Assembly: GCA_963805945.1 (NCBI GenBank)
Contig: CAWDVP010000001.1
Span: 128,001 to 192,000 of the forward strand
Length of the DNA: 64,000 nt
Direction: 5' to 3'
Origin: Vulcanimicrobiota bacterium
GTDB taxonomy: Bacteria > Vulcanimicrobiota > Vulcanimicrobiia > Eremiobacterales > Eremiobacteraceae
Shown: positions 6,642-8,151 of the stretch, piece after piece
Position numbering within the stretch: position 1 is the first letter of the stretch
How the letters are laid out: every line of letters begins with the position of its first letter
Made by a program: the position numbers and the translations under genes
Notes under the pieces: model-generated
Databases searched by the model: none
The model's input: only the letters and a program-made list of their open reading frames with translations
What the model was told of the DNA's origin: nothing

Positions 6642-6919
6642 CATGTTGCTTCCACCATTACTGGTGGCATAGACTATATCTTCATCCTGACTTGCGATCA
6701 GGAGTCGGCGTGTTATGGCGGCCGTAAATTTGTCGCATTGCTGCGACAGTGACCATCCATCTCAGAGCTTGCGCTCTTCAGTCGTTACAGGGTCAAGGCG
6801 CTCTGTAGCGCCCGACTTCCCTCGGTATTGCCCTGCTGGCGTTCGGAGCCAGCGTGGGGTTTCACCGATATAGCCGATGTGCATCCTCCAATTACTCGGA
6901 GGAGACGCAGTGTAATTCT
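6642..6919 (-). ncRNA. Group I intron at 23S L2593 (278 nt, IA3-like, no ORF)
   Basis: Inserted in AGAACGU^CGUGAGACAG, ends in G. P1 ACGU|AG...CUGCGU with U.G; P3 UCGGC/GCCGA; P4 UCGGU/ACCGA; R GUAACGACUG; S AAGAUAUAGUCU; P7.1/P7.2 extension. Confidence 0.95.
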
Positions 6920-7012
6920 ACGTTCTGAACCCAGATCGCGTACCGCTTTAATTGGCGAACAGCCAAACCCTTGGGACCTACTACAGCCCCAGGATGCGAC
7001 GATCCGACATCG

Positions 7013-7295
7013 CGCAGTCATCCATCATTCCTGATGGTGCAGACTATATCTTCACCTTGCGCGATCATTCGCGCGAAGGGCTGGCGTATTATGGCGGCCG
7101 TAGATTTGATCGCTTGCGCGATCAGACACACCATCTCGAGCTTGCGCTCTCAGTCGTTACGGGGTCAAGGCGCATCGCGCGCCCGACTTCCCACGGTATT
7201 GTCCTCGTCTTCAGTCCTAAGACGATCGGAGTTCACCGTTATTAGCCAGTACTCTATTGGTAGGCGGTGTTTCCACCACCTCACCCCTAATGTTG
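7013..7295 (-). ncRNA. Group I intron at 23S L2500 (283 nt, IA3-like, no ORF)
   Basis: Inserted in UUUGGCACCU^CGAUGUCGG, ends in G. P1 CACCU|C...GGGGUG; P10 ACAUU/GAUGU; P3 CUGGC/GCCAG; P4 ACGGU/ACCGU; R GUAACGACUG; S AAGAUAUAGUCU. Confidence 0.95.
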
Positions 7296-7865
7296 AGGTG
7301 CCAAACCTCCCCGTCGATGTGGACTCTTGGGGGAGATAAGCCTGTTATCCCCGGGGTAGCTTTTATCCGTTAAGCGATGGCTCTTCCATACAAAACCACC
7401 GGATCACTTAGCCCGACTTTCGTCCCTGCTCGACATGTACGTCTCGCAGTTAAGCCGACTTCTGCCTATGCACTCTTACGGTTGATTTCCGACCAACCTG
7501 AGTCGACCTTTGGGCGCCTCCGTTACTCTTTGGGAGGCGACCGCCCCAGTCAAACTGCCCGCCTGACCATGTCCTCCGGCCGGATCACGGCCGCTAGTTA
7601 GATTCCCGAAACCGACAGAGTGGTATCTCAAGGATGGCTCCATCGCGCCCGAAGACACGACATCGCAGCCTCCCACCTATCCTGCGCAGTCAATTTCAAA
7701 AATCAAGATCAGGGTACAGTAAAGCTCCACGGGGTCTTTCCGTCCTGCTGCGGGTAACGGGCATCTTCACCCGTATTGCAACTTCGCCGAGCCCCCCATT
7801 GAGACAGTGCCCAAGTCGTTACGCCATTCGTGCAGGTCGGAACTTACCCGACAAGGAATTTCGCT

Positions 7866-8151
7866 CAGTTTTGTTACGACCGTCGTCCGTTAGAGACGCC
7901 GGCGGACTCGTCATTTCTGCGGATCTCCGTGCATCGCTGCACGGCTCGGACTATATCATCATCCGCGCGTGAACGCGGAGTCCGGCATGTAGTCTCTGAG
8001 GGGAACCGTCGTGAGATGGATCTTCCCTGCTGATCGTCCGCACCGATCGAATTGTCACGCGCGGTGAAGCGCGTATCGTCGGATGCTCGGATGTTCCAGC
8101 ATATAGCCAGATGCACACACGATCTTACGATCGTGGTGGGCAATCGATATC
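7866..8151 (-). ncRNA. Group I intron at 23S L1931 (286 nt, IB-like, no ORF)
   Basis: Inserted in CUAAGGU^AGCGAAAUU, ends in G. P1 GGU|GAU...AUUGCC; P AUAUGCUGGAA; Q GAUCAGCAGG; R UCAGAGACUA; S AUGAUAUAGUCC; P3 UCUGGC/GCCGGA; extended P9 region. Confidence 0.95.

Follow-up and report, generated by a model that had tools for sequence, protein, structure and literature searches.

Three group I introns without endonuclease genes in the 23S rRNA gene of a bacterium assigned to Vulcanimicrobiota

Three insertions in one 23S rRNA gene

Here we analyse a 64,000-nt stretch of DNA from a bacterium assigned to Vulcanimicrobiota (positions 128,001 to 192,000 of contig CAWDVP010000001.1, GenBank assembly GCA_963805945.1), hereafter the window, in which the 23S ribosomal RNA (rRNA) gene is interrupted by three group I introns that hold no open reading frame (ORF) for a homing endonuclease. 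The window contains one rRNA operon, with 16S, 23S and 5S genes on the minus strand (Table 1), and the 23S gene, 3912 nt long with its insertions, matches the 2925-position bacterial large-subunit (LSU) model RF02541 over its full length. An original prediction, made from the letters of the sequence, had described three insertions of 286, 283 and 278 nt in this gene; global MAFFT alignment to the E. coli K-12 rrlH gene (L124:260-3163), together with direct reading of the junctions, bears out its lengths, sites and junction motifs, as well as the 93-nt exon between the second and third insertions. Its position numbers followed the plus strand, with no mention of the minus-strand orientation of the gene.

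The alignment contains exactly three large insertions, every other insertion being 10-52 nt long, and places them after E. coli positions 1931, 2500 and 2593, that is, at sites L1931, L2500 and L2593 (introns 1, 2 and 3 below). With a slash marking each exon-intron boundary, the junctions read CTAAGGT/GATATC...AAAACTG/AGCGAAA for intron 1, GGCACCT/CAACAT...GACTGCG/CGATGTCGG for intron 2 (...GACUGCG/CGAUGUC at the 3′ junction of the RNA) and AGAACGT/AGAATT...AACATG/CGTGAGAC for intron 3 (...AACAUG/CGUGAGA). The exon base preceding the intron is U and the last intron base is G (omega-G) in all three cases, and excision in silico restores CUAAGGU/AGCGAAA, GGCACCU/CGAUGUCGG and AGAACGU/CGUGAGAC.

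The exons themselves are intact. All 27 functional nucleotides that were checked are the same as in E. coli, including A2451, U2506, U2585, A2602 and the helix 69 (H69) positions, and the short exon 3 is identical to E. coli at 84 of 93 positions. The introns have a G+C content of 54-57%, against 54.4% for the 23S exons and 65.7% for the whole window. Elsewhere in the gene there are small expansions relative to E. coli, of 13, 34 and 32 nt after positions 278-302 (window 9869-9971, minus strand) and of 52 nt after position 1415 (window 8676-8727, minus strand). The 16S-23S spacer (window 10252-10752, ~500 nt) lacks a tRNA gene, and ARAGORN detected none in the whole 64-kb window.

Table 1. The rRNA operon, its exons and introns in window coordinates, and loci from the genome scan (L followed by three digits) that carry introns at 23S sites
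Feature	Position	Strand	Details
16S rRNA gene, same operon, without intron	10753..12279	minus	RF00177 1576 bits, model positions 1-1533
23S rRNA gene	6340..10251	minus	3912 nt with three introns, 3065 nt exons; RF02541 2555 bits, model positions 1-2925
5S rRNA gene, same operon	6084..6201	minus	RF00001 95.4 bits
Exon 1 (E. coli 1-1931, end ...CUAAGGU)	8152..10251	minus	2100 nt, alignment to E. coli
Intron 1 (site L1931, after E. coli 1931)	8151..7866	minus	286 nt
Exon 2 (E. coli 1932-2500)	7296..7865	minus	570 nt, alignment to E. coli
Intron 2 (site L2500, after E. coli 2500)	7295..7013	minus	283 nt
Exon 3 (E. coli 2501-2593, part of the peptidyl-transferase centre)	6920..7012	minus	93 nt
Intron 3 (site L2593, after E. 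coli 2593)	6919..6642	minus	278 nt
Exon 4 (E. coli 2594-end, start CGUGAGAC)	6340..6641	minus	302 nt
L2500 introns, among the matches listed			L010, L021, L033, L071, L082, L089, L097, L108
L2593 introns, among the matches listed			L008, L042, L044, L071, L108
L2449 introns, among the matches listed			L011, L085, L088/L089, L118
L2604 introns, among the matches listed			L010, L073, L097
L2657 introns, among the matches listed			L076, L086, L107

Group I architecture, relatives and host lineage

The 253-position Rfam group I model RF00028 (gathering score 50), searched with permissive thresholds, matches all three introns. Intron 1 scores 59.4 bits (E 9.6e-14) and is the only one above the gathering score; introns 2 (32.9 bits, E 8.5e-6) and 3 (41.3 bits, E 2.5e-8) fall below it but are significant, each covering all 253 model positions. 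Introns at L2500 and L2593 in bacteria of the candidate phyla radiation (CPR) score 29.6-77.5 bits among the matches listed from the genome scan described below, and the sub-threshold values of introns 2 and 3, which lie in this range, fit subgroup divergence from the model and not decay.

Minimum free energy (MFE) folds of 9 nt of exon joined to 45 nt of intron give each intron a P1 with a U.G pair at the splice site (GGU/GAU with AUUGCC in intron 1, CACCU/C with GGGGUG in intron 2, ACGU/AG with CUGCGU in intron 3), followed by a P2 hairpin. The core motif GRTGAWGATATAGTCY (J8/7-P7) is present in three copies in the window, all of them within the introns, and in none of 100 shuffles. The GAUAUAGUC motif (J8/7-P7′) likewise occurs in all three introns and nowhere else in the window, and upstream of it in the introns lies a complementary GACU(A/G) strand. 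The P7 strands and the J8/7 motif are present, and the core helices P3-P9 are kept by covariation: introns 2 and 3 have 69 consensus pairs in common, of which 20 are compensatory, spread over P3, P4, P5, P6, P7.1, P7.2, P8 and P9, and in a six-sequence alignment of intron 1 with five relatives P2-P9 are common to all, with double changes in 23 of 39 pairs. Single-sequence MFE folds of introns 2 and 3 recover the group I helices, with z-scores of -5.63 and -5.52, respectively; the z-score of intron 1 is -2.15 (3 of 200 shuffles as good). Model matches, the P1 U.G pair, the terminal G, covarying P2-P9 and the occupation of the same sites elsewhere thus uphold the group I identification of the original prediction, including its P1 pairs and its proposed covariance-model check.

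We also considered whether the insertions are intervening sequences (IVSs) processed by RNase III, which are released through cleavage of a terminal stem. The IVSs of bacterial 23S genes are likewise extra sequence removed from the transcript, but they lie in helices 25 and 45 and are excised without ligation (PMC11270868). Both their positions (1931, 2500 and 2593) and their group I architecture set the insertions here apart from IVSs, and this identity was rejected.

The three introns fall into two classes. In intron 1 the P2 hairpin is capped by a GUAA loop and P9 by a GCGA loop, P5 is extended, and a 61-nt 3′ tail follows P9 and precedes the terminal G; P7.1 and P7.2 are absent, and the intron belongs to an extended-P5 class that is widespread in the 16S and 23S genes of bacteria. 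Introns 2 and 3 both have P2 (with a GAAA loop in intron 2) and P3-P9, and between P7 and P3′ two hairpins with GCAA loops, P7.1 and P7.2; intron 3 ends in ...AACAUG, as do CPR introns at L2593. They belong to one family bearing P7.1 and P7.2, which is also found at L2449, L2500 and L2593 in CPR bacteria. We take introns with P7.1 and P7.2 to be of subgroup IA type, a candidate label that draws in part on the description of L2593 introns in PMC1995217.

Relatives were sought by scanning 596 billion bases for a 15-base core motif, which gave at least 123 loci where ~2,000 chance matches are expected. The sample is therefore biased and made up mostly of chance matches; 23S exons are present in 20 of the 123 loci listed, and the RF00028/Rfam scan covered 34 of the 123. 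Neither Eremiobacterota relatives nor the genome of the window itself are among the matches listed, and their absence there is uninformative. Among these matches, the hosts of 23S introns are mostly Patescibacteria (CPR), and in a Saccharibacteria locus (L071) the same 93-nt exon lies between two ORF-less introns, one of 247 nt at L2500 and one of 330 nt at L2593. Metagenome-assembled genomes (MAGs) from outside the CPR, gammaproteobacterial ones included, also carry L2500 introns (L089 and L097). A contig of a MAG labelled Gammaproteobacteria (CAYJVP010000027.1; L087-L089) carries a 23S gene that is interrupted at least five times, with RF00028 matches at L1917, L1931 (a 14-nt exon lying between them) and ~L2256 and exon breaks at L2449 and L2500. 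On trimmed alignment columns, the best identity of the window introns to any fetched intron is ~60-68%.

Among the matches listed, introns of the intron 1 class are also found in 16S genes. The core GGCUAUAUGCUGGAA...CAAUCAGCAGGGAAG...CCUCAGAGACUACACGCC is common to intron 1 and the introns of four such loci (L058, L053, L043 and L111), which interrupt 16S rRNA genes or sit at the 16S 3′ end in MAGs of Kaiserbacteria, Actinomycetota and Planctomycetia and in one unclassified bacterium; LAGLIDADG genes lie inside the L043 and L053 introns. Trees were built from a MAFFT E-INS-i alignment of 13 introns, with six partial introns, including that of L119, left out, and the whole-length tree pairs intron 1, at a support of 100/99, with an L2604 intron from a Pseudomonadota MAG.

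None of the three introns contains an endonuclease ORF. At 278-286 nt they are too short to hold such a gene: the longest frame between stops measures 91, 43 and 51 aa in introns 1, 2 and 3, respectively, and four frames scanned from the intron region had no Pfam match. Nine ORFs, namely eight from the introns of relatives (six of them confirmed LAGLIDADG) and the 91-aa frame of intron 1, were compared with the window by tblastn, and no convincing endonuclease match was found in its 64 kb, the 91-aa frame matching only itself. The description of the introns as ORF-less thus stands. The best tblastn match, obtained in the 16S-23S spacer with the endonuclease of the L033 intron (10586-10738, plus strand, E 0.002), was considered as a possible LAGLIDADG remnant; the 80-aa frame there has no Pfam match, and we took the match to be chance. 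Endonuclease genes are present in relatives at the same sites, with LAGLIDADG_2 in an L2500 intron (L033) and LAGLIDADG_1 in two L2593 introns (L042 and L044), and overall LAGLIDADG_1/2/3 domains are encoded in the introns of L033, L042, L044, L073, L043 and L053.

Genes on both sides of the operon indicate the lineage of the host. The product of a biotin carboxylase gene (22043-23404) is 85-86% identical to proteins of Candidatus Eremiobacteraeota and Eremiobacteraceae MAGs, one of them named Ca. Binatus, and on the other side a protein encoded at 269-1561 matches Eremiobacteraceae and Ca. Tumulicola, which NCBI places in Vulcanimicrobiota. Since the proteins on both flanks are Eremiobacterota-like, the operon sits in the DNA of one lineage, and the host is an Eremiobacterota/Vulcanimicrobiota (WPS-2) bacterium. 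Among the other genes of the window, an ftsH-like gene (61707-63648, minus strand) runs in alternating frames: FtsH_ext and AAA_lid_3 fall in one ORF (62320-63648) and AAA and Peptidase_M41 in another (61707-63182), while E. coli FtsH aligns over aa 135-607 in frame -3 and matches over aa 353-377 at 88% in frame -2. These ~3 frameshifts suggest either a pseudogene or indel errors in the assembly; the other long genes inspected (accC, PBP1A, recN-like) are single ORFs. A 1327-aa ORF at 51362-55345 (plus strand) has calcineurin-like phosphoesterase, AAA_23 and SMC_N domains and looks like a fused SbcD-SbcC-type nuclease.

Splicing, intron history and alternative explanations

We consider it probable, at roughly 0.85, that these are three genuine ORF-less group I introns at classic LSU homing sites, that they are spliced, and that they are survivors of endonuclease loss. 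In the precursor rRNA each intron would fold into its ribozyme core (P3-P9) and dock P1, in which the last exon U is paired with a G of the internal guide sequence; a bound free guanosine would then cleave the 5′ splice site, and the freed exon U would attack after the terminal G and so join the exons. Three such events, which may proceed independently of protein, would rebuild helix 69/71 and the peptidyl-transferase centre, and the lineage would require all three for each ribosome, other rrn copies possibly lying outside the window. The introns would now be immobile and vertically inherited, the endonuclease-less survivors of a homing cycle of gain and loss, with a G+C content like that of the host rRNA. 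In our analysis the most likely history is that the homing-endonuclease gene was lost and that the resulting minimal ribozymes were then inherited vertically, which fits both the ORF-bearing and ORF-less forms reported at the same sites in CPR bacteria (PMC11270868) and the 707-nt intron of a WPS-2 genome (PMC4192840).

Several points weigh against this interpretation. The scores of introns 2 and 3 do not reach the RF00028 gathering cut-off, and P10 pairing is weak or absent on reading of the sequence. The architecture is seen directly, whereas splicing activity is something that we infer from the group I fold and the intact exons, and an L1931 intron of Simkania is called 'unspliced' in a title in the reference list of PMC11270868. 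An ORF remnant is not seen, the P6 hairpins, where relatives carry their ORFs, are clean, and the argument for endonuclease loss comes from those relatives. The window represents 64 kb of a genome that may elsewhere hold a second rrn operon lacking introns, or the gene of a free-standing endonuclease, and assembly indel errors such as those suspected in the ftsH-like gene may have put the intron lengths off by about one base.

The alternative that survives best, although we regard it as rather unlikely, is that splicing takes place in vivo but is not autonomous, depending on a host RNA chaperone or on a maturase from another locus, and that the introns may still move by collaborative homing or reverse splicing. 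Three precedents are described: the LAGLIDADG protein of a Thermotoga 23S intron acts as a maturase, host chaperones assist phage introns, and ORF-less introns home collaboratively with free-standing endonucleases (PMC3984707). The weak P10 counts in favour of this reading, as does BLAST, where the top single match of either of introns 2 and 3 is the other one (77% over 193 nt, 121 bits). However, there is no LAGLIDADG-like sequence in the 64-kb window, the cores of all three introns are complete and their helices stable and G+C-rich, and the tree neither supports introns 2 and 3 as sisters nor rejects this, the p value of the approximately unbiased test (p-AU) for their clade being 0.26 over the whole length and 0.09, 0.32 and 0.47 by partition.

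The mutual BLAST match also favours an origin of introns 2 and 3 by exchange within one gene, either through self-copying of an endonuclease-less intron from one of the sites L2593 and L2500 to the other (reverse splicing with later retuning of the guide is one route) or through a swap of P6-P7.1-P7.2 by gene conversion. So do the 84-100% identity of the two introns through P6, J6/7, P7 and P7.1, and the P7.1/P7.2 region of intron 2, which resembles those of L2593 and L2449 introns and is unlike that of the other L2500 introns fetched. Against exchange, the 5′ halves, the guide sequences, P4-P5 and the AACAUG 3′ end of intron 3 track site-specific CPR lineages and not the genome, and the BLAST scores against CPR introns sum to 105-118 bits, nearly as high as the match between introns 2 and 3, which is neutral or counts against exchange. 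On trimmed columns intron 3 is nearest the L2593 intron of L044 (identity 0.68), and intron 2 is about equally near intron 3 (0.65), the intron of L042 (0.63) and the L2500 introns of L071 (0.62) and L010 (0.62). We therefore treat duplication or domain exchange within the gene as a minor possibility, and a distinctly unlikely one. The two introns are identical in the P7.1 hairpin GAGCGCAAGCUC and near-identical in the P6 stems, and differ by compensatory changes in P2, P5, P7.2, P8 and P9; we speculate that the divergence of these helices may prevent mis-pairing between such similar ribozymes, 93 nt apart, and with it the skipping of the exon that separates them.

It is improbable, in our estimation, that these are real group I introns that no longer splice, being retained, fragmenting the rRNA, or residing in a dead operon while another rrn supplies the ribosomes. 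In favour of such a state are the sub-gathering scores of introns 2 and 3, the 'unspliced' bacterial L1931 intron cited by title, the presence of one operon in the window, and the frameshifted look of the ftsH-like gene, which means that gene decay or sequence errors are present in the same stretch. The rRNA genes themselves argue otherwise: the 23S exons are free of decay, with a full-length LSU match and every functional nucleotide checked conserved, the 16S and 5S genes are full length, all core helices are maintained by compensatory changes, and the RF00028 scores of CPR introns at the same sites are just as low. An insert of 280 nt at 2500 or 2593, inside the peptidyl-transferase centre, should moreover block function, which counts against loss of splicing in this gene.

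An assembly artefact, in which intron-bearing fragments from CPR bacteria or organelles of the same sample were joined into the 23S gene, is scarcely credible. In its favour are the difficulty of assembling rRNA genes from metagenomes, the CPR MAGs that provide the nearest intron relatives among the matches listed, and the possible indel errors in the ftsH-like gene. Against it, the gene is interrupted at three separate places, always exactly at a homing site and between perfect exon ends, host sequence runs unbroken through the exon that separates introns 2 and 3, and the DNA on either side of the operon comes from one phylum. The introns also resemble the host rRNA in G+C content, whereas their CPR relatives look A+T-richer by eye, and no fetched intron exceeds the identity of ~60-68% given above.

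Place among known bacterial 23S introns

The original prediction had named a set of bacterial hosts of 23S group I introns, and its list agrees with PMC11270868 and PMC1995217. The nearest published case by host was described in 2014, when a WPS-2 genome from acid mine drainage was found to carry a 707-nt L1931 intron encoding a LAGLIDADG, I-CeuI-like endonuclease (PMC4192840). That intron and intron 1 share candidate phylum, gene and site (between 1931 and 1932), and by description they differ in that intron 1 is an ORF-less 286 nt and is accompanied by two further introns.

The closest published parallel for three group I introns in one 23S gene is Synechococcus sp. C9, with introns at L1917, L1931 and L2593 that all carry endonuclease genes (PMC1995217); L1931 and L2593 are the sites that Synechococcus sp. 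C9 and S. lividus C1 have in common with the window. In the same account the cyanobacterial L2593 intron has a short P5 with P7.1 and P7.2, as intron 3 does, and the L1931 intron a complex P5, as intron 1 does. Unlike the window introns, however, the five cyanobacterial introns are 666-748 nt long with full-length LAGLIDADG genes, none of them is at L2500, and the L1931 intron is described without the P2 that intron 1 possesses.

CPR bacteria are the other main source of comparison. Insertions are reported in 82% of 348 CPR 23S genes, with group I introns making up 45% of 968 insertions; ORF-bearing and ORF-less introns occur at the same sites, and L1931 is among the sites occupied (PMC11270868). 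The same paper states that group I introns at 23IS9-11, 13 and 14 are unreported in other bacteria, and a '2500' printed beside '23IS11' in its supplement fits L2500, although it may be a mere numbering tick. The CPR loci of our scan (L071, L108, L010, L033, L008, L042 and L044) are like the window in the occupation of L2500 or L2593, in their guide sequences and in the AACAUG end of the L2593 introns; they differ in that the window host is not a CPR bacterium, its window is 66% G+C, and its introns are G+C-rich and stand at ~60-68% identity to theirs on trimmed columns. CAYJVP010000027.1 is a further parallel from outside the CPR, since a single 23S gene there holds several group I introns, L1931 and L2500 included, and its L1931 intron starts with GAGAUCGUUGC..., much like the GAUAUCGAUUGC... 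of intron 1. As far as the contig fragments compared extend, it differs in having further insertions at L1917, ~L2256 and L2449, that at L2449 being ~865 nt long and ORF-sized.

Bacterial 23S genes with several introns (PMC1995217), ORF-less introns at these sites (PMC11270868) and an L1931 intron in the phylum (PMC4192840) are already in print. What the present case adds is this phylum as a host of L2500 and L2593 introns, a trio of introns all of which are ORF-less, and their compact, G+C-rich form. A literature search that left most subscription journals outside its coverage returned no report of L2500 or L2593 introns in Eremiobacterota.

On a practical level, introns of this kind lengthen or break rRNA gene calls and defeat primers for the polymerase chain reaction that span their sites. 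Our understanding of group I introns as such is unchanged by the finding. The L2500 introns of non-CPR bacteria (L089, L097 and the present host) do bear on the statement about sites in PMC11270868. Eremiobacterota/WPS-2 is a non-CPR phylum of free-living type, and it is here added to the few bacteria with a 23S rRNA that would need several splicing events, two of them in the peptidyl-transferase centre. Together with the WPS-2 intron of 2014 (PMC4192840), the present introns provide a pair within one phylum, with and without an endonuclease, that may be useful for studies of how homing introns are gained and lost.

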